DNA of 5,657 nucleotides from a virus (taxonomy: Duplodnaviria > Heunggongvirae > Uroviricota > Caudoviricetes). This document shows positions 1-5,657 of the stretch, one piece after another. Made by a program: the position numbers and the translations under genes. The stretch lies in IMG/VR virus record IMGVR_UViG_2609460218_000011. One strand, 5' to 3'. Numbering within the stretch: position 1 is the stretch's first letter; the number at the start of each line of letters is the position of its first letter. Below the pieces are notes generated by a model, which saw only the letters and a list, made by a program, of their open reading frames with translations, was not told where the DNA came from and made no database searches.

Positions 1-131
1 ATGAACTGCAGTTGCCATGTTTTACGGCAGTGAGAGCAGAGATAGCGCTGATGTCCGGCGGTGCTTTTGCCGTTACGCACCACCCCGTCAGTAGCTGAAC
101 AGGAGGGACAGCTGATAGAAACAGAAGCCAC
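1..131 (-). CDS. insA: IS1 InsA, N-terminal 43 codons; 3' part lies outside the window
   Basis: The minus-strand frame starting at GTG (complement of 129-131) translates to [43 protein letters not shown], which matches the InsA N-terminus from memory. The start lies ~55 nt inside the IRL, as expected for IS1. Confidence 0.85.
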
Positions 132-186
132 TGGAGCACCTCAAAAACACCATCATACACTAAATCAGTAAGTTGGCAGCATCACC
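1..186 (-). mobile_element. IS1-family insertion sequence, partial copy cut by the window edge; left inverted repeat (IRL) terminus at position 186
   Basis: Read on the minus strand from 186 down to 1, the sequence is the IS1 left end GGTGATGCTGCCAACTTACTGATTTAGTGTATGATGGTG... as I recall it. The same ~170 nt recur in forward orientation at 5487-5657. The element continues beyond the window start. Confidence 0.9.
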
Positions 187-254
187 ATTTCACGATTATA
201 TACAGCGGCATTGCTCAGTCTGCACAAGTCACGGCCCCTCCGCAGAGCTGGCAG

Positions 255-1406
255 GTGGATATCACTCCGGAACTGAAAACAGCACTGAAAGCACCTAATC
301 GCCTGTCAGAAATTGCTGATGAAGGCAAAGAGGCACAACAGGAATCACGCGATAATCTCGGGCTAAAAAAAGCGGCCACAATGGAACCTCAGAATGGTAT
401 CCGTGACCGTTCTGAAGGTCGTCTGGCGACACCTGGTGCATTTGGTTTTAGTCACAGGTTTATTCCGGGGGAGGCCGTCAGGTTTAAATCTGAGGCTGAT
501 TTTCTGGCATGGGCAAGATATGTGGAGCCAGGAGAATATTATGTGGATGGGGCAAACGGTGTACTTCCCGGCATTGTTTTTCAGGGGGTGATAAGTATCC
601 GCTGGCTGGAAGCAAACCATAACCCACCACTTCCGTTACATACAGCAAAGGCCATTATTTTCTACGGCATTAATGGCAATATTTATTACAACCGTTACTG
701 GTCCACTGGTAATGGCTGGCTGACTGGCTGGGAAAACCTGAAAGTAAACGAGGTTGCACTCAGGGAACTTATTGAAACAAGGGCTCCTCTGGAAAGCCCG
801 GAATTCACAGGAAAGCCGACTACACCAACACCGCCGGATGATGCAGCAGGTAATGAAATTGCCAGTGTGGCCTTTGTTCGCAAACAGATGGAATCTCTTG
901 ACACCACTTCACCAGAGGGTCCCGAAATTTCTTCTGCGCCGACCAATTTACTGTCCAGACAACAATCCGGAGACTTATTTGTTGATGGCGCTCATCCGGT
1001 CATTCCAAAGGTGGCTGTAAGTACCCTGAACAGCAACCTGGATTCATTTAAAAGTCTGCCGGATGGTTCACGTATTTATGCTATGGAACTGGATGTATCT
1101 AATCCTGTCAGGAAATCCTCTGTTGGAGGAGTGGGTATCGCTGTTTCTGCTCTGCTCGAACCACGTTATCTCTACATGAATCAGAACCGACAATACATTC
1201 CTGCTCAGTATTTTGTCGGTTCTGTCTCGGCTACCGCGAGCACAATAACAGTAAGAATACGGGTGGTGATGCCAGACACACCTTACTATGCACTGGATAC
1301 ATCGACACTGGAGGAGACAGCCAGCGCAAAAAATGGACCTCTTCCCTGTATTGTGGTGGCAAAAATATTTGCGGGAACAACATTACGCCAGAACGGAATG
1401 GGGTAA
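255..1406 (+). CDS. Phage side tail fibre protein, C-terminal fragment; 5' end apparently replaced by the IS1 insertion
   Basis: Long ORF ending TAA 1404-1406. The frame has no stop between 99 and 255, so it stays open upstream through the IS1 junction at 186/187; GTG 255 is only the first possible start in the track. The segment FTGKPTTPTPPDDAAGNEIASVAFV (about nt 803-889) resembles the conserved phage tail-fibre repeat (F-T-G-x-P-T-x-P-T ... I-A-x-x-A-F-V). Composition is rich in G/S/T/N, typical of fibre distal domains. Confidence 0.6.
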   Translation: MDITPELKTALKAPNRLSEIADEGKEAQQESRDNLGLKKAATMEPQNGIRDRSEGRLATPGAFGFSHRFIPGEAVRFKSEADFLAWARYVEPGEYYVDGANGVLPGIVFQGVISIRWLEANHNPPLPLHTAKAIIFYGINGNIYYNRYWSTGNGWLTGWENLKVNEVALRELIETRAPLESPEFTGKPTTPTPPDDAAGNEIASVAFVRKQMESLDTTSPEGPEISSAPTNLLSRQQSGDLFVDGAHPVIPKVAVSTLNSNLDSFKSLPDGSRIYAMELDVSNPVRKSSVGGVGIAVSALLEPRYLYMNQNRQYIPAQYFVGSVSATASTITVRIRVVMPDTPYYALDTSTLEETASAKNGPLPCIVVAKIFAGTTLRQNGMG

Positions 1407-1430
1407 TATCCGGACACACAGGAAGAACAA

Positions 1431-1931
1431 ATGAACAATTCAACATGGATACGCTCTGTTTTGCGACCAGCCCCCATAGCTATTACCTGTTCAATGGTTT
1501 GCCTCCACCCATGGTCAGAAAATACGGGAAACATTACACCATCAGGGCATTACCTCAGCCCGGATAATGCTGTATCCGCGCTTTTACCTTATCTGACAGA
1601 AAACACAGAAAAAAGACGTTGTGGCGCTGTTATTTTGCGCCCCGTCTGCTGGCGAGTTTTTATCACTCGCCAGGCAATTTTCAGGCGCATTTCCGTTACC
1701 AGAGGTGGGACGAATGTCCCGCATGATCTCCAGCCAGTTTTCACTGGCCATCAGCAGAATGCAAATCCCCGCCAGACCGGTAACATCACTTCCGGAACCG
1801 ATAATGCTATCGACACAGACCACTCGCAGCATGTCGCTGGCGGCAACCATTGCACAGGCAGCCACTCCTGCCGTCACATCACCGGAAACATTGTCATCAT
1901 CACTGCGTCAGTTCATGAATGCGAGAGATAA
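1431..1931 (+). CDS. Hypothetical protein in the position expected for a tail-fibre assembly/chaperone gene; frame assignment ambiguous
   Basis: ATG 1431 lies 25 nt after the fibre stop and is preceded by the SD-like AGGAAG (1420-1425, 5-nt spacer). The downstream half of the translation is rich in Cys/His/Arg and looks like an out-of-frame read. It overlaps the frame-1 ORF 1621-2154 and the antisense ORF 1584-1877, which shares the same codon register. Confidence 0.3.
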   Translation: MNNSTWIRSVLRPAPIAITCSMVCLHPWSENTGNITPSGHYLSPDNAVSALLPYLTENTEKRRCGAVILRPVCWRVFITRQAIFRRISVTRGGTNVPHDLQPVFTGHQQNANPRQTGNITSGTDNAIDTDHSQHVAGGNHCTGSHSCRHITGNIVIITASVHECER

Positions 1932-2154
1932 AGCCTTACAGGAAATCGCTGATCAGCAGGCCGCACTCCGGCAAAAATTTTGCCCGGTGTGGCGCTTTTG
2001 CCACAAGGGAGCCCTTAGCCAGGCCGCAGTGCTGATACAAAAAAACATCCCACACCCCGAGTGGGTTTTTACAGCTGTGATGCTGTTCGTCGGCGATAAT
2101 CTCTCATCACTAAGGGAAACACTACATGACCCAGATGATTGTCCTTGCGCTTGA
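1621..2154 (+). CDS. Hypothetical protein, alternative frame; may be the continuation of the 1431 ORF after a frameshift
   Basis: This frame opens at 1597 (after TGA 1594-1596), 12 nt upstream of an A6 run (1609-1614). Internal ATG 1712 is preceded by GAGGTGGGA. The translation contains plausible helical stretches such as DKALQEIADQQAALRQK. Its end overlaps the 2126 start by 29 nt. Confidence 0.25.
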   Translation: MALLFCAPSAGEFLSLARQFSGAFPLPEVGRMSRMISSQFSLAISRMQIPARPVTSLPEPIMLSTQTTRSMSLAATIAQAATPAVTSPETLSSSLRQFMNARDKALQEIADQQAALRQKFCPVWRFCHKGALSQAAVLIQKNIPHPEWVFTAVMLFVGDNLSSLRETLHDPDDCPCA

Positions 2155-2701
2155 CGGGGAAGCCATTCTGCTGCGCAACATCACCGTCAGCGCCACCATG
2201 CAACTACCGGACAAAGATATGTCCGGACAATCAACCAGCACCACGAGCGCCCAGCAGGGAAACAAGGCCAAAGAGCTGCGCGTATCGGGGATTATTGATT
2301 TTAACGATGAAGCTATTTTGACCCGTATTTTTCAGCTTGCGGAGGCAACAGAAAGCAACGGAGCCAAAAAAACATACCGCATCGCCAACGCTACTGCTAA
2401 GGCGATTAATATGCGACAGGGTGTTTTTTCGGGCAGCATCGATGCCACGGAACAACAGGGCAAGATGCACTGGCAGGTCACCTTTACCCTCAGGGAAAAA
2501 TTAAGCGTGCCGGAAAAAGCATCGGCACGCAGTGGCTCACAGAAAACAATCGCAAAGCAGCAGACACAGAACGGCAGTGAGCAGGTACCGGATAAAGGAA
2601 TGAATACCCAGGAGACTTTCTGGAAAAATATCAATGATGGTATTGGCTCCGGTCTGGACTGGATTGGCATCGGGAGCGTGAAGGAGGAAGGGAAAACATG
2701 A
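2126..2701 (+). CDS. Hypothetical protein (191 aa), first gene of a coupled pair; probably phage-associated
   Basis: SD-like AAGGGA (2112-2117) lies 8 nt upstream of ATG 2126. Its stop TGA 2699-2701 overlaps the next start ATG 2698-2700 (ATGA), indicating translational coupling. No catalytic motif recognised by eye. Confidence 0.6.
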   Translation: MTQMIVLALDGEAILLRNITVSATMQLPDKDMSGQSTSTTSAQQGNKAKELRVSGIIDFNDEAILTRIFQLAEATESNGAKKTYRIANATAKAINMRQGVFSGSIDATEQQGKMHWQVTFTLREKLSVPEKASARSGSQKTIAKQQTQNGSEQVPDKGMNTQETFWKNINDGIGSGLDWIGIGSVKEEGKT

Positions 2702-4395
2702 AATTAATCCAACGCTGTATGATTAATGGCGAGCTGGCGGAAATTGCCGATATCAGCCTTGTTCTTACCCTGAATGCTGCCGGTCGTGGTTTCATTTCTG
2801 TTAATAATCTGCCACCCAAAAAAAGTCTTGCCGGCGCAATGATACAAATTGATCTCGGCCGTAATGGTGAGGCATGGCGCTATTTCTCCGGCTACATTGA
2901 ACGCGATCAACCCGCCGAAAATGGCTCACGCCGCCTTTTTATCCGTGAAGCAGCTGCCGTGCTGGATTTTGATTTCCCCTGCTCCATGCAACATCCAACG
3001 TTACGGGATGTACTCGATAATCTGGGTAAACAAAGCGGCATCGTTTTCATCACGCCAGACGCGGATTACGTCGGTACTCCGACACCTTACATCACCCACA
3101 GCGGCAGCGGAACACAACTGCTTAGCCAGCTGGGGCGAGCATTCAGTATCAGCGATTACGTCTGGCATCCAATGCCGGACGGTTCCGTATTTGTGGGAAG
3201 CGCATCGGATTCACGGTTTGCCAGTATTACCATGCCGGATATTCCGCAACAGTACACACTCGGGCAAAGCGGCGGAAACAGCATCGACATCATGTTTATG
3301 GAAACTGTGCGACCGGGCGTGAACCTTCCAGCCGGGCGCATTACCCGTGTAGCCCTCAACAACGAGAAAATGACCCTGACATGGGAACGCCTTACCACCA
3401 CGGGTAGCCCTGTTTCCAAATCACCATTACGCAGACAGATGGAAACACAGTTCCCGGAACTGGCCAGCGGTACTCTACATACCAGGCTGGCGCGCGTCAT
3501 TGCCCCAACGGAATCCGTCACCCTGGGCGATGTTGCCGACAGTTTCCGCCCACGCTACGCCGTCGATGTGCAACTGCTTGATGAGAACGGCAACGATAAA
3601 AGCGATACGCCTGTTTATCCGGCAGTACCACTCCCCGTCCCGATGGCTGGTAGCGAGGCGGGATGTTTTGCCTACCCGCCGGCTGGCACCATCGTGGAAA
3701 TATCCAACATTGAAGGACGACCGGATAAACCTGTCATCAGGCAAATCTTACCCGCAGGCCATAACCTGCCTGATGTAAAGCCCGGCGAACAGCTGCAGCA
3801 ACAGCGCGCAGAAGTGTTTCAGCGCGTCACAACTGACGGAAGCTGGCACAGAGAAACCGACCAGCAAATCAGGGAGCATTCAGCCAGGCGAACCATTAAC
3901 AGCGATCAGGAAGAACGCACAACAACAACCAGAACAACAACAGTCCAGGCAAACGACATAACCAGTGTTCTTGGTACCAGCAAACTGATGACAGGCCAGA
4001 CAGAACACCTTACTACCGGCAATTATGCGATCGCAGCCGGTGAGCATATCCAGATGGTAGCGCAGGATTTGCTGACTCAACTCAAAGGGGCGATATCCAC
4101 CATTGAGCATGACCTCACCGAAAACGTGGGAGGCCGCAGAACATGCAGAGCGGACGGCGGTCTGGAGTTTACCGCTCCGACAGTATTTATTGGTCGCGGC
4201 GGCTCGCGGGAAAAGTCAGGGCTTAACCTGCTGACGTTGCTGATCGATATTCTGGATCTGATTCAATTACTGGCCACACATACAGCAAACCACACCCATA
4301 GCAACACTGACGCACCAATGAACAGCAGCGAACTTGCCGCAGATGCCCTGCAGGCGACGAGCCTGCGCGAAAAATACGGCGACATTATCGCCTGA
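2698..4395 (+). CDS. Hypothetical protein (565 aa), possibly a phage tail/fibre-associated structural protein
   Basis: Longest ORF in the window. AGGAGG (2682-2687) and GGGAA lie upstream of ATG 2698, which is coupled to the upstream gene. It contains a Thr-rich low-complexity tract (ERTTTTRTTTVQ, about nt 3910-3947) and a C-terminal His-rich motif ATHTANHTHSNTD (about nt 4273-4311). It is followed by a hairpin terminator. No NTPase or nuclease motif recognised. Confidence 0.7.
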   Translation: MKLIQRCMINGELAEIADISLVLTLNAAGRGFISVNNLPPKKSLAGAMIQIDLGRNGEAWRYFSGYIERDQPAENGSRRLFIREAAAVLDFDFPCSMQHPTLRDVLDNLGKQSGIVFITPDADYVGTPTPYITHSGSGTQLLSQLGRAFSISDYVWHPMPDGSVFVGSASDSRFASITMPDIPQQYTLGQSGGNSIDIMFMETVRPGVNLPAGRITRVALNNEKMTLTWERLTTTGSPVSKSPLRRQMETQFPELASGTLHTRLARVIAPTESVTLGDVADSFRPRYAVDVQLLDENGNDKSDTPVYPAVPLPVPMAGSEAGCFAYPPAGTIVEISNIEGRPDKPVIRQILPAGHNLPDVKPGEQLQQQRAEVFQRVTTDGSWHRETDQQIREHSARRTINSDQEERTTTTRTTTVQANDITSVLGTSKLMTGQTEHLTTGNYAIAAGEHIQMVAQDLLTQLKGAISTIEHDLTENVGGRRTCRADGGLEFTAPTVFIGRGGSREKSGLNLLTLLIDILDLIQLLATHTANHTHSNTDAPMNSSELAADALQATSLREKYGDIIA

Positions 4396-4435
4396 ACACC
4401 AGACATAAAAGCCACATAAACGCCCCATCACGCAA

Positions 4436-4459
4436 CGCACGGTCCCGGCCGTGCGTTTT
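4436..4459 (+). terminator. Putative Rho-independent terminator of the 191/565-aa operon
   Basis: Stem CGCACGG (4436-4442), loop TCCCGG, stem CCGTGCG (4449-4455), then TTTT (4456-4459); 41 nt downstream of the stop at 4395. The T-tract is short. Confidence 0.5.
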
Positions 4460-4935
4460 CATATCTGCCACCTGATTAATCGTTCTGCGTGCCATTCTGG
4501 CGCTGTATGCGCACACCGCGCAAACGGCGTGACGTAAAGCGTGAGGTGACGTAAACCGCGCTACCCCCTCCAACCCGCGGGTTTTGTGTCGAAACACTTT
4601 TTCAGTTTTCTGCCGTGCAAAAATGACCGCCAGCCCGCGCAGCGACTGAGGGAAAAGCGAAGATCTGAAATTTCACGCTTTGAAATTTTTTGCAGTTTTC
4701 AGCGAGTTTTTTACGATCTCATAAATGGCAGGAGCAATGAAACTGCATGATATTAAAAGAGTTTTCATGCTTTGCGCGAGACGAAAAACGATCAAAAAGG
4801 ATCGCGACAAAAAATCGTCAAACAACGAAGCCAGACGCGGCGCGGCCTGCGTAAAATTGAGAGTCAAAATTAAACTGAAAAAAGGATCAATAACGCGCCT
4901 CGATCGCACATGACGATCTACGCAGCAACAGAGCG

Positions 4936-4958
4936 AAAAAAACCGGCGCGAACGCCGG
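4936..4958 (-). terminator. Strong Rho-independent terminator acting on the minus strand
   Basis: On the minus strand: CCGGCG (comp. 4953-4958), UUCG tetraloop, CGCCGG (comp. 4943-4948), then seven U (comp. 4936-4942). The plus strand has no T-tract after the hairpin, so it is directional. Confidence 0.55.
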
Positions 4959-5000
4959 CGGAAGCATGTATCAAATGCGTGACTGAATAATGTATAAGGT
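4936..5000 (-). ncRNA. Candidate small RNA of about 60 nt, transcribed divergently from the hok-type promoter
   Basis: Minus-strand sigma70-like promoter: -35 TTGAGG (complement of 5030-5035), 18-bp spacer, -10 TAAAAT (complement of 5006-5011). This predicts a start near 4998-5000 and termination at the 4936-4958 terminator. No ORF of note lies inside. Confidence 0.25.
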
Positions 5001-5039
5001 CGGGAATTTTACATCAGAAGACCGACAAACCTCAACGGA

Positions 5040-5069
5040 TTGAAACAAGGGAAAAAACCAGGCTAGAAT
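5040..5069 (+). promoter_or_regulatory. Sigma70-like promoter of the hok-type toxin transcript
   Basis: -35 TTGAAA (5040-5045), 18-bp spacer, -10 TAGAAT (5064-5069). The predicted start near 5076 coincides with the first base of the 5' fold-back element. Confidence 0.45.
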
Positions 5070-5075
5070 TCGCGC

Positions 5076-5427
5076 GGGTGCCTTTCGGCTGATGGCTGGA
5101 GGGAATACCTGAAGGCCGGATGTGGAAAGGCCCCGGAAAACATTTTTGTTTAACCGAGGCCCTAACCATCTACCCTAGACAAGTGATAGGTTAGCGCCTC
5201 CCCGAAAAAGGAGCAAGCGCTATGTCGCAAAAATCGCTTACAGCCATCACGTTCTGCGTGACGGCAATCCTCATCATCTGGATGTTGCACGGTTCACTGT
5301 GTGAGATACGGATGAGTTTTTGGGGAGCGGAGTTTGCGGCGTTCTTACAGTGTAAACAGTAAGGAAACCGCGGCGGGGGAGCAATCCCCCGTCAATCGGT
5401 TGCTAAGGTAAGGTCGTAAAGGCACCC
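5076..5427 (+). other. hok/gef-type toxin mRNA unit with 5' (tac-like) and 3' (fbi-like) complementary elements
   Basis: GGGTGCCTTT at 5076-5085 is the exact reverse complement of AAAGGCACCC at 5418-5427 (10/10). A GC-rich hairpin (GGGGGA-GCAA-TCCCCC, 5375-5390) sits in the 3' UTR. This matches the long-range 5'/3' pairing known for hok mRNAs. Confidence 0.55.
5222..5362 (+). CDS. Hok/Gef-family type I toxin (46 aa), small membrane peptide
   Basis: Translation: MSQKSLTAITFCVTAILIIWMLHGSLCEIRMSFWGAEFAAFLQCKQ. It has an N-terminal hydrophobic helix, the conserved SLCEIR motif and a C-terminal Cys, as in Hok-family peptides. SD AAGGAG (5208-5213) lies 8 nt upstream of ATG 5222; stop TAA 5360-5362. 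Not in the ORF track because it is under 60 codons. The specific paralogue is not recognised, so no symbol is given. Confidence 0.75.
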   Translation: MSQKSLTAITFCVTAILIIWMLHGSLCEIRMSFWGAEFAAFLQCKQ

Positions 5428-5486
5428 TATCTTCTAACATATGAGTGGAAAATCCTACGGGGAAAAATGTAAACCTCGTCCTTGCC

Positions 5487-5657
5487 GGTGATGCTGCCAA
5501 CTTACTGATTTAGTGTATGATGGTGTTTTTGAGGTGCTCCAGTGGCTTCTGTTTCTATCAGCTGTCCCTCCTGTTCAGCTACTGACGGGGTGGTGCGTAA
5601 CGGCAAAAGCACCGCCGGACATCAGCGCTATCTCTGCTCTCACTGCCGTAAAACACT
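5487..5657 (+). mobile_element. IS1-family insertion sequence, partial copy cut by the window edge; IRL terminus at 5487
   Basis: GGTGATGCTGCCAACTTACTGATTTAGTG... in forward orientation, the reverse complement of positions 16-186. The last two bases (5656-5657, CT) differ from the left copy (TG). Confidence 0.9.
5542..5657 (+). CDS. insA: IS1 InsA, N-terminal portion; continues past the window end
   Basis: GTG 5542 opens a frame translating [38 protein letters not shown]..., matching the InsA N-terminus. Confidence 0.85.

Follow-up and report, generated by a model that had tools for sequence, protein, structure and literature searches.

The two inverted IS1 ends that close off the window, by which we mean the whole analysed stretch of 5,657 nucleotides, probably arose as separate, successive events at the native site of a prophage; sequence comparisons among near relatives put this reading at roughly 80%. 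The window looks like an entire contig of a short-read assembly, from an E. coli lineage rich in IS1, and at each end it breaks off within a collapsed IS1 repeat. We suggest that an IS1 in minus orientation would first have truncated the second tail-fibre gene of the prophage at 186/187, and that in a sub-clade a second IS1, in plus orientation, would then have inserted at 5486/5487. Such a history would yield a pseudo-composite structure built in situ, with the hok toxin locus as ordinary prophage cargo that became incidentally enclosed.

The sequence-only reading had described inverted IS1 ends with their IRL and insA sides turned towards the enclosed DNA, and this description holds. Positions 18-186 and 5487-5655 form an inverted repeat of 169 nt with 100% complementarity in a scan of the window. 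The repeat is IS1 and hence not a product of chance. As a reference served the RefSeq-annotated 768-bp "IS1-like element IS1A" at 2252-3019 of the relative L001. On the reverse strand, positions 2-186 are 100% identical to IS1A positions 1-185 (L001 2436-2252), and 5487-5655 are 100% identical to IS1A positions 1-169 (L001 2252-2420). The 23-bp IRL of the left copy ends exactly at 186 and that of the right copy begins exactly at 5487. Independent gene calls on the sister contig L013 place the InsA zinc-ribbon N-terminus (PF03811) at both contig ends, reading outward, with the Pfam match at the equivalent of the right end lying at 5482-5612. Together, the exact IRL ends and the outward InsA calls mean that both IRL/insA sides face the 5300-bp interior. 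The insA of the left fragment (1..186, minus strand) thus reads leftward out of the window and that of the right fragment (5487..5657, plus strand) rightward. Only 186 nt of the left copy and 169 matching nt of the right copy are present, because what appears to be a whole short-read contig stops inside a collapsed repeat; the longest reach into IS1 by any contig with either junction is IS1 position 254. Nucleotides 1 and 5656-5657 of the window mismatch IS1. Polymorphism among IS1 copies was considered as a source of these terminal bases and rejected, since they coincide with none of the variants seen, which are at IS1 positions 262, 444 and 486.

The enclosed DNA carries the truncated fibre gene, the coupled gene pair and the hok-type locus anticipated from the sequence, now backed by PHROG and Pfam matches. 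The second tail-fibre gene (189..1406, plus strand; matching PHROG tail-fibre families, among them 2636 and 8713) is short of some 112 N-terminal codons at its 5' end. Its reading frame stays open from the junction onwards, with a GTG at 255 as the earliest start codon. In L001 the complete gene begins at 5664, and in L002 and L004 it is called at 514 aa. The coupled pair consists of an HP1_ORF34-type baseplate complex protein of 191 aa (2126..2701, plus strand; PF25759, E = 3e-53; PHROG 1398) and a phage baseplate protein of 565 aa (2698..4395, plus strand; PHROG 2258 "baseplate protein", E = 2.9e-232), whose start overlaps the stop of the 191-aa gene (ATGA). The 191-aa protein carries a G104S change private to the window, and a search for this variant gave no exact-protein record. 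The same search gave none for the junction-spanning reading frames at 173-298 (plus strand) and 5345-5500 (minus strand). An additional phage gene of unassigned function, missing from the earlier list of contents, lies at 1431..2154 on the plus strand. Together with the coupled pair it gives the segment three genes of the baseplate region. It encodes 240 aa in relatives, where the intact form matches PHROG 31292 and 1677. In the window, an extra A at 1609, within an A-run, shifts the frame and splits the gene into reading frames at 1431-1931 and 1621-2154; the same column is a gap in 14 of 14 relatives. A weak Rfam hit for RsmY (18.8 bits, E = 0.24) covers 2044-2185, within a coding region, and was set aside as a chance match.

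The native context of this segment is the E. coli chromosome. At 99.8-99.9% identity, the interior corresponds to the distal end of a decayed P2/HP1-like prophage located between glsA and copA, and it is co-linear with both the glsA-side and the copA-side neighbours in CP053720, CP050031, CP050036 and NQBX02 (99.83-99.89% identity). Where the prophage at this site is intact, hok invariably precedes one and the same acetyltransferase gene, beyond which comes copA. The right IS1 site lies 75 bp upstream of this acetyltransferase gene.

Comparison with genomes lacking one or both insertions, as the sequence-only reading had proposed, provides clean empty sites at both junctions. In L001 and L002, the left site reads ...cttattcgta|ATTTCACGATT... 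and the right site reads ...CCTCGTCCTTGCC|cactcataagaag... without IS1. The left junction, IRL|ATTTCACGATTATAT, is identical in the seven contigs L011 to L017. Two of these, L011 (126.7 kb) and L012 (126.6 kb), carry the left IS1 only, read through the right site without interruption and continue into the acetyltransferase gene and copA. The left junction thus exists without the right IS1. The right junction is found in addition in L013 (NCBI assembly GCA_012037245.1) and in L014 and L015 (k141 metagenome assemblies), which hence carry both. The derived alleles 450A, 2284A and 4744T are common to the window and L013-L015 and absent in L011 and L012, so that the contigs with two IS1 copies group as a nested clade in a SNP tree of only 3 + 1 informative sites. 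The left-only junction of L011 and L012, together with both junctions and three derived SNPs in L013-L015, indicates that IS1 arrived stepwise and in place. The order of events was left, then right. Of the three origins envisaged earlier, the one closest to two successive IS1 events at the native locus is thereby favored by the empty sites, the left-only contigs and the SNP clade, and arrival as a composite transposon finds no such backing, with the junctions absent from complete genomes and the plasmid and phage matches restricted to hok (see below).

The mode of arrival might differ between the two copies. In L005, an IS1 of matching orientation sits 943 bp farther to the left, and allele 4772T is shared. 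The left junction therefore most likely arose through a 943-bp IS1-mediated adjacent deletion from an L005-type copy, or else through a fresh insertion. Arrival by adjacent deletion would probably have left the left IS1 without any target duplication. If the left IS1 was instead a simple insertion, the 9 bp of interior adjoining its IRL, ATTTCACGA (187..195), would be one copy of the duplication. The right IS1 likely moved in by simple transposition with a 9-bp duplication, of which GTCCTTGCC (5478..5486), adjoining the right IRL, is the presumed inner copy. IS1 has been active in this region, where near-identical genomes show no fewer than four different IS1 boundaries over some 4 kb. The IS1 copies on the glsA side have no target duplications, which would fit deletions mediated by IS1. 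The window thus resembles the simple IS1 insertions and IS1-mediated adjacent deletions of IS1-rich E. coli and Shigella chromosomes in its IS1A ends, clean junctions, stepwise gain and variable boundaries without duplications. There is no essential difference from these events, the two copies in the window merely being 5.3 kb apart and inverted.

An inversion is unlikely to explain the arrangement, in whole or in part. The left IS1 could have generated the right one by duplicative inversion, through intramolecular replicative transposition towards its IRL side, or homologous recombination between the inverted 768-bp copies could have flipped the segment, and the interior would now be reversed relative to glsA and copA, possibly in a mixed population. 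Under the standard model of replicative transposition, duplicative inversion would yield just such an inverted pair, both IRLs inward, when the starting IS points its IRL at the target. The left IS1 did exist beforehand with its IRL towards the later target site, IS1 is well established to transpose replicatively and to cause adjacent rearrangements, and other IS1-mediated rearrangements without target duplications occur in the region. Against this, positive evidence for inversion is lacking, all four junctions it predicts are those of a simple insertion, and simple insertion is the commoner outcome of IS1 transposition. Simple insertion, duplicative inversion and recombinational inversion give identical junctions, so the window and the short-read contigs cannot discriminate among them. 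Matching 9-bp duplications on the outer flanks would likewise not separate the models, and the target-duplication test proposed earlier would for the same reason not have been decisive. A segment that actively flips between its IS1 copies, an inside-out IS1 substrate or a nascent Tn1681-like transposon with hok as addiction module is very unlikely. If flipping did occur, orientation could alter the expression of hok or of the acetyltransferase gene just outside the right IS1.

Two inverted IS1 copies around a 5.3-kb cargo with an apparently intact hok locus could also be read as a functional Tn1681-like composite transposon, in which hok/sok would act as an addiction module for the receiving replicon. 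Tn1681 is a composite transposon with inverted IS1 arms around the STa enterotoxin gene, and Tn9 one with direct IS1 copies. In the window, too, passenger DNA of a few kb lies between two copies of one element, IS1, placed in the inverted orientation of Tn1681, as judged from the inner 169-186 nt of each copy. We consider this reading highly unlikely. Composite transposons are found as units at more than one locus or outside their ancestral context, but here the passenger sits in its glsA-copA context. The block formed in place, with a left-only intermediate in the ancestral context. Its cargo is the end of a dead prophage with one truncated and one frameshifted gene and no selectable function. 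Compared to Tn9 and Tn1681, the block thus has a single locus, an in-situ origin, no selectable marker and no evidence of movement as a unit. A literature search on IS1 composite transposons gave nothing specific.

Searches of sequence collections point in the same direction. Neither inner junction had a full-length match when 80-nt queries were compared to 5,426 complete E. coli genomes, where only IS1 halves with fortuitous extensions were recovered. Matches of the interior among 72,556 plasmids and 50,697 phage records were confined to the hok region, and no second locus or replicon was found for the IS1-bounded block across the complete E. coli genomes, plasmids and phages. In JGI metagenome contigs, IMG/VR and GTDB representative genomes, the inner junctions gave 0 matches, as did, in the first two of these collections, the sequence expected at the outer right junction (the IS1 IRR end, then 0-20 nt, then the native flank). 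Since the inner junctions are missing there, all of these negatives are uninformative. A look-up of the acetyltransferase for contigs starting at the outer right junction retrieved only long contigs, with intact or L002-type prophages. The exact 565-aa protein sequence is indexed in 341 collection blocks, in 209 of which the longest contigs are of 5-10 kb. That these contigs are all of the window type was rejected as unproven. The 5-10 kb class is probably mostly another IS-bounded arrangement, since the clade-specific 383-aa fibre fragment occurs on only 7 contigs and the acetyltransferase in 135 such blocks. Contigs of at least 5 kb with the 383-aa fragment are all of the double-IS1 type.

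The inward arrangement of the IRLs is no more than chance gives in this IS1-rich lineage. A query with a single IS1 recovered at least about 39 copies in the nearest complete genome. Simulations with 40 randomly placed IS1 copies in 4.55 Mb gave an expectation of 1.8 neighboring IS1 pairs within 5.3 kb, and a pair with inward IRLs within that distance arose in 37% of the simulated genomes.

An assembly artefact, with one IS1 junction real and the other created by a repeat mis-join or by strain mixing, is exceedingly unlikely. The window does end inside a repeat with mismatching terminal bases, and the extra A at 1609 might reflect an error in a homopolymer run. Both junctions nevertheless recur, identical to the base, in L013, L014 and L015, three independent assemblies that differ in source and assembler, and the left junction recurs also in L011, L012, L016 and L017.

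The toxin locus near the right IS1 is of the hok/sok type I (5040..5427, plus strand), as indicated by Pfam HOK_GEF, PHROG 251, a sub-threshold Rfam sok match, a promoter scan and the predicted fold. On the plus strand, a promoter-like site from the promoter scan lies at 5040-5069, with the predicted mRNA 5' end near 5076. The hok gene itself (Hok/Gef family; 5222-5362, plus strand) matches PF01848 with 29.9 bits against a cut-off of 22 and PHROG 251 "MokW-like host killing" with E = 1.3e-22, and the corresponding gene in relatives bears the RefSeq annotation "Hok/Gef family protein". An fbi-like element at 5418-5427 (plus strand) would pair with 5076-5085 at the mRNA 5' end. In both the MFE and centroid folds, the predicted 5'-3' (tac-fbi) closure pairs 5076-5090 with 5413-5427 (z = -7.3 versus shuffles). 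With the Rfam sok model the locus reaches 46.3 bits (E = 3e-08), under the gathering score of 59, and a candidate Sok promoter on the minus strand, TTGCTC-17-TAACCT at 5216-5188, does not attain significance by itself. The sole reading frame in the mok position is a 24-aa upstream ORF (5120-5194, plus strand), which stops 28 nt short of the hok start and has no overlap with hok. The spacing noted earlier is exact, with the fbi-like element ending at 5427 and the IRL starting at 5487, 59 nt beyond. By its predicted fold the hok locus appears structurally intact, and IS1 at this distance past fbi would leave the hok mRNA whole.

The remark that IS elements lie beside hok loci in E. coli K-12 is correct: Pedersen and Gerdes (1999), as cited in PMC7232551, report that IS insertions, point mutations or rearrangements have left the hok loci of K-12 non-functional. 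With IS150 or IS186 next to hokA, hokC and hokE, an IS just downstream of a hok-family type I locus is shared with the window. The window differs in having IS1 and a prophage-borne, MokW-like hok (PHROG 251), with all recognizable mRNA elements kept and no indication of inactivation. P88/Xuanwuvirus-like phages, Stx phages and several plasmids carry a hok region that is 84-94% identical to positions 4846-5258. The likeness to the hok/sok modules of these phages, prophage-borne as well, is limited to the hok region, whereas the structural genes of the window match a different, P2/HP1-like prophage. The earlier suggestion that a toxin module could stabilise the segment has little force, since recombination between inverted repeats flips the segment rather than deleting it. 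Moreover, hok is enriched in prophages and a common prophage cargo (bioRxiv 10.1101/2025.08.07.668861).

The block shows no sign of moving as a unit. Were it to prove mobile or invertible, the known IS1 composite elements would gain a modest further member. A contig ending in inverted IS copies does not prove a composite transposon, and short-read junctions cannot tell a simple insertion from an inversion. The window illustrates cleanly, step by step, how IS1 erodes a prophage in an E. coli lineage rich in this element, and is of small importance beyond bookkeeping.

Both ends of the window are IS1 left ends facing the enclosed DNA. Positions 18-186 and 5487-5655 form a perfect inverted repeat of 169 nt. 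Read on the reverse strand, window 2-186 is 100% identical to the first 185 nt of the RefSeq-annotated 768-bp IS1A of a related E. coli sequence (L001 2252-3019), and window 5487-5655 is 100% identical to the first 169 nt of the same element. The IRL terminus abuts the interior exactly at 186/187 and 5486/5487, and gene calls on a sister contig place the zinc-ribbon N-terminus of InsA at both ends, reading outward. The inward-facing IRL/insA ends described in the sequence-only reading are thus borne out. Only 186 nt (left) and 169 nt (right) of IS1 are included. The extreme tips deviate from IS1 at nt 1 ("a") and at 5656-5657 ("ct"), where sister contigs continue as normal IS1. Variants of the IS1 copy in the related sequence L002 (positions 262, 444 and 486) do not coincide with these bases, which were rejected as copy variants and are probably contig-tip noise. 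Near-identical contigs of 5.5-5.6 kb from four other assemblies stop at similar depths within IS1. Given the partial ends, the mismatching tips and these shared stops, the window appears to be an entire contig from short reads, broken off where assembly ran into a collapsed IS1 repeat.

The 5300-bp interior is 99.83-99.89% identical to four E. coli chromosomes (CP053720, CP050031, CP050036 and NQBX02), where it makes up the distal part of a decayed prophage that lies between glsA and copA. In strains with an intact prophage, the genes run from tape measure, DUF2590, baseplate J, a tail protein and fibre 1 with its assembly protein, through a second tail-fibre gene (fibre 2, in some cases accompanied by a DUF4376 gene), a gene of 237/240 aa, HP1_ORF34 and the gene for a 565-aa baseplate protein, to hok, a hexapeptide acetyltransferase gene and finally copA. 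The window retains fibre 2 without about 112 N-terminal codons (189-1406; PHROG tail-fibre families), the 240-aa gene (1431-2154), the HP1_ORF34 baseplate complex protein (2126-2701; Pfam E = 3e-53) and the baseplate protein, whose start overlaps the preceding stop (2698-4395; PHROG 2258, E = 2.9e-232). A stretch of about 650 nt (4396-5040), in which no gene is convincing, separates these from a hok/sok-type locus (5040-5427). The PHROG and Pfam matches agree with the truncated fibre gene, coupled gene pair and hok-type locus recognised earlier. Alignment with relatives shows that an additional A at 1609, private to the window, shifts the frame of the 240-aa gene: the run at 1603-1609 is A7 in the window and A6 in 14/14 related copies, leaving ORFs at 1431-1931 and 1621-2154. 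This base either reflects a mutation that turned the gene into a pseudogene or is a sequencing error in the homopolymer. RefSeq labels part of fibre 2 a "shikimate transporter" partial pseudogene in L001 (6177-6698) and in L003 (8172-9161), a prophage of the same type integrated next to raiA. The label looks like a misannotation, since the region matches tail-fibre families. The longest contig carrying the exact 565-aa baseplate protein is only 5-10 kb in 209 of 341 index blocks, as is that carrying the neighbouring acetyltransferase in 135 of 594. Such short maxima make it probable that some common clone of E. coli carries the region in a different form, likewise bounded by repeats.

The left edge of the prophage has been struck by IS1 repeatedly. 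IS1 in plus orientation occupies two different glsA-side positions, one in L001 (2252-3019) and one in L002 (4922-5689) and L004, neither with a target duplication. IS1 in minus orientation lies 943 bp left of the window junction in contigs of the L005 type (L005 1-186), the commonest among the contigs read, and also at the window's own left junction. Genomes more than 99.8% identical in the interior thus show at least four IS1 boundaries, with both orientations represented. This number, and the lack of target duplications at the two fully visible copies, suggests that IS1-mediated deletions have repeatedly eroded the prophage from its glsA side. For the window's left junction, the simplest source would be an adjacent deletion of 943 bp, mediated by IS1 and starting from the L005 state, as the L005 copy and the window copy agree in orientation and an allele is shared between the two groups. 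The left IS1 would then carry no target duplication, whereas a fresh insertion would leave an outer flank ending ...cttattcgtaATTTCACGA, with a duplication.

The two IS1 copies were acquired at different times. For each junction, near-identical genomes show a clean empty site (...cttattcgta/ATTTCACGATT... and ...CCTCGTCCTTGCC/cactcataag...). Exact-protein look-up retrieved two 126-kb contigs, L011 (GCA_048936035.1) and L012 (GCA_900195945.1), which start within the same left IS1 with an identical left junction and cross the right site without a break, running on into the acetyltransferase gene and past copA. The comparison with genomes lacking one or both insertions, proposed from the sequence alone, thus recovers both the empty and the left-only state. 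The same look-up found both junctions base for base in L013 (GCA_012037245.1), L014 and L015, and an assembly artefact is very unlikely. When 15 copies of the interior are aligned, derived alleles 450A, 2284A and 4744T are common to the double-IS1 contigs including the window and absent from L011 and L012, while 4772T is common to the double-IS1 contigs, L011, L012, L001 and L005. Read as a nested pattern, these alleles place the left junction first and the right IS1 later in a sub-clade. Together with the left-only intermediate, they argue that the block took shape at the native locus instead of being brought in whole.

Inverted IS1 arms are also the form of Tn1681-type composite transposons. 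The window block is alike in form but departs from them in the one behaviour examined. A composite transposon is very unlikely, as the block is seen nowhere but at its passenger's ancestral locus, a single-IS1 intermediate exists, neither inner junction was found among 5,426 complete E. coli genomes, and plasmids and phages match the hok region only. The scanned DNA collections contain neither the predicted outer junctions nor the inner ones, which leaves the missing outer junctions without weight as evidence, and proteins specific to the junctions or private to the window have no indexed entry by exact look-up. Of the three origins first entertained (composite unit, inversion, two insertions), we favour two successive in-situ IS1 events, with a probability of roughly 80%. 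The predicted order is L005-type outer flank, IS1 (minus), fibre to hok, IS1 (plus), GTCCTTGCC, cactcataagaag, acetyltransferase gene and copA, with both IS1 copies 768 bp long. Inversion of the segment after insertion is a less likely addition to these events. Under a standard replicative-transposition model with the IRL of the left IS1 facing the target, a simple plus insertion, a duplicative inversion starting at the left copy and a later inversion by homologous recombination between the two copies would share one set of four junctions: outer-left/IRR, IRL/fibre end, hok end with GTCCTTGCC/IRL, and IRR/GTCCTTGCC with native flank. Short-read contigs and inspection of target duplications therefore cannot separate insertion from inversion, and only reads spanning a whole IS1 can.

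The right IS1 lies beside an uninterrupted toxin locus. Hok (46 aa, 5222-5362) scores 29.9 bits in Pfam (cut-off 22) and matches PHROG "MokW-like host killing". An Rfam sok/leader match at 5076-5235 is sub-threshold yet significant (46.3 bits, E = 3e-08), a promoter scan places a promoter-like site at 5040-5069, and the predicted fold closes 5076-5090 onto 5413-5427 (z = -7.3). The fbi-like element ends at 5427, leaving the 59 nt before IS1 that had been read from the sequence. Similarity to the L003 prophage stops at 5432, 5 nt past this element, and this marks a sharp module boundary directly after hok at 5427-5432. The right IS1 has thus landed immediately beyond the hok module and 75 bp upstream of the acetyltransferase gene. 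Cargo after hok differs, with the acetyltransferase and a 93-aa gene at the window site versus Com and a DNA methyltransferase in L003 (~14250). An upstream 24-aa ORF (5120-5194) ends 28 nt before hok with no mok-like overlap, and the minus strand carries a candidate Sok-like promoter, TTGCTC-17-TAACCT, at 5188-5216. Regulation here may be laid out differently from R1 hok/sok. In P88/Xuanwuvirus-like phages, Stx phages and plasmids, the stretch beside hok that corresponds to 4846-5258 shows 84-94% conservation. Within 4396-5040, the minus strand has a strong terminator-like hairpin (4959-4942 plus T-run) and a promoter-like site (5035-5006), which together could delimit a short transcript divergent from hok. 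Where PMC7232551 cites Pedersen and Gerdes 1999, K-12 hok loci are reported as non-functional via IS insertion, point mutation or rearrangement. The suggested parallel with K-12 is real but loose, as the window IS1 lies beyond every recognisable hok mRNA element. The idea that the toxin stabilises the segment finds little footing: recombination between inverted IS1 copies inverts rather than deletes it, leaving nothing obvious for stabilisation to oppose.

The closest complete genome (CP053720, 4.55 Mb) has roughly at least 39 IS1 copies, with at least 40 match pieces to a query with a single IS1. With 40 copies placed and oriented at random, simulated genomes had a mean of 1.8 neighbouring pairs within 5.3 kb, and 37% had an IRL-inward pair; with 20 copies, 11% did. 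On this model, the paired arrangement is unremarkable for the lineage, even before counting local IS1 activity. The window structure is of an already known kind, matching most closely the insertion and deletion activity of IS1 in an IS1-rich chromosome.
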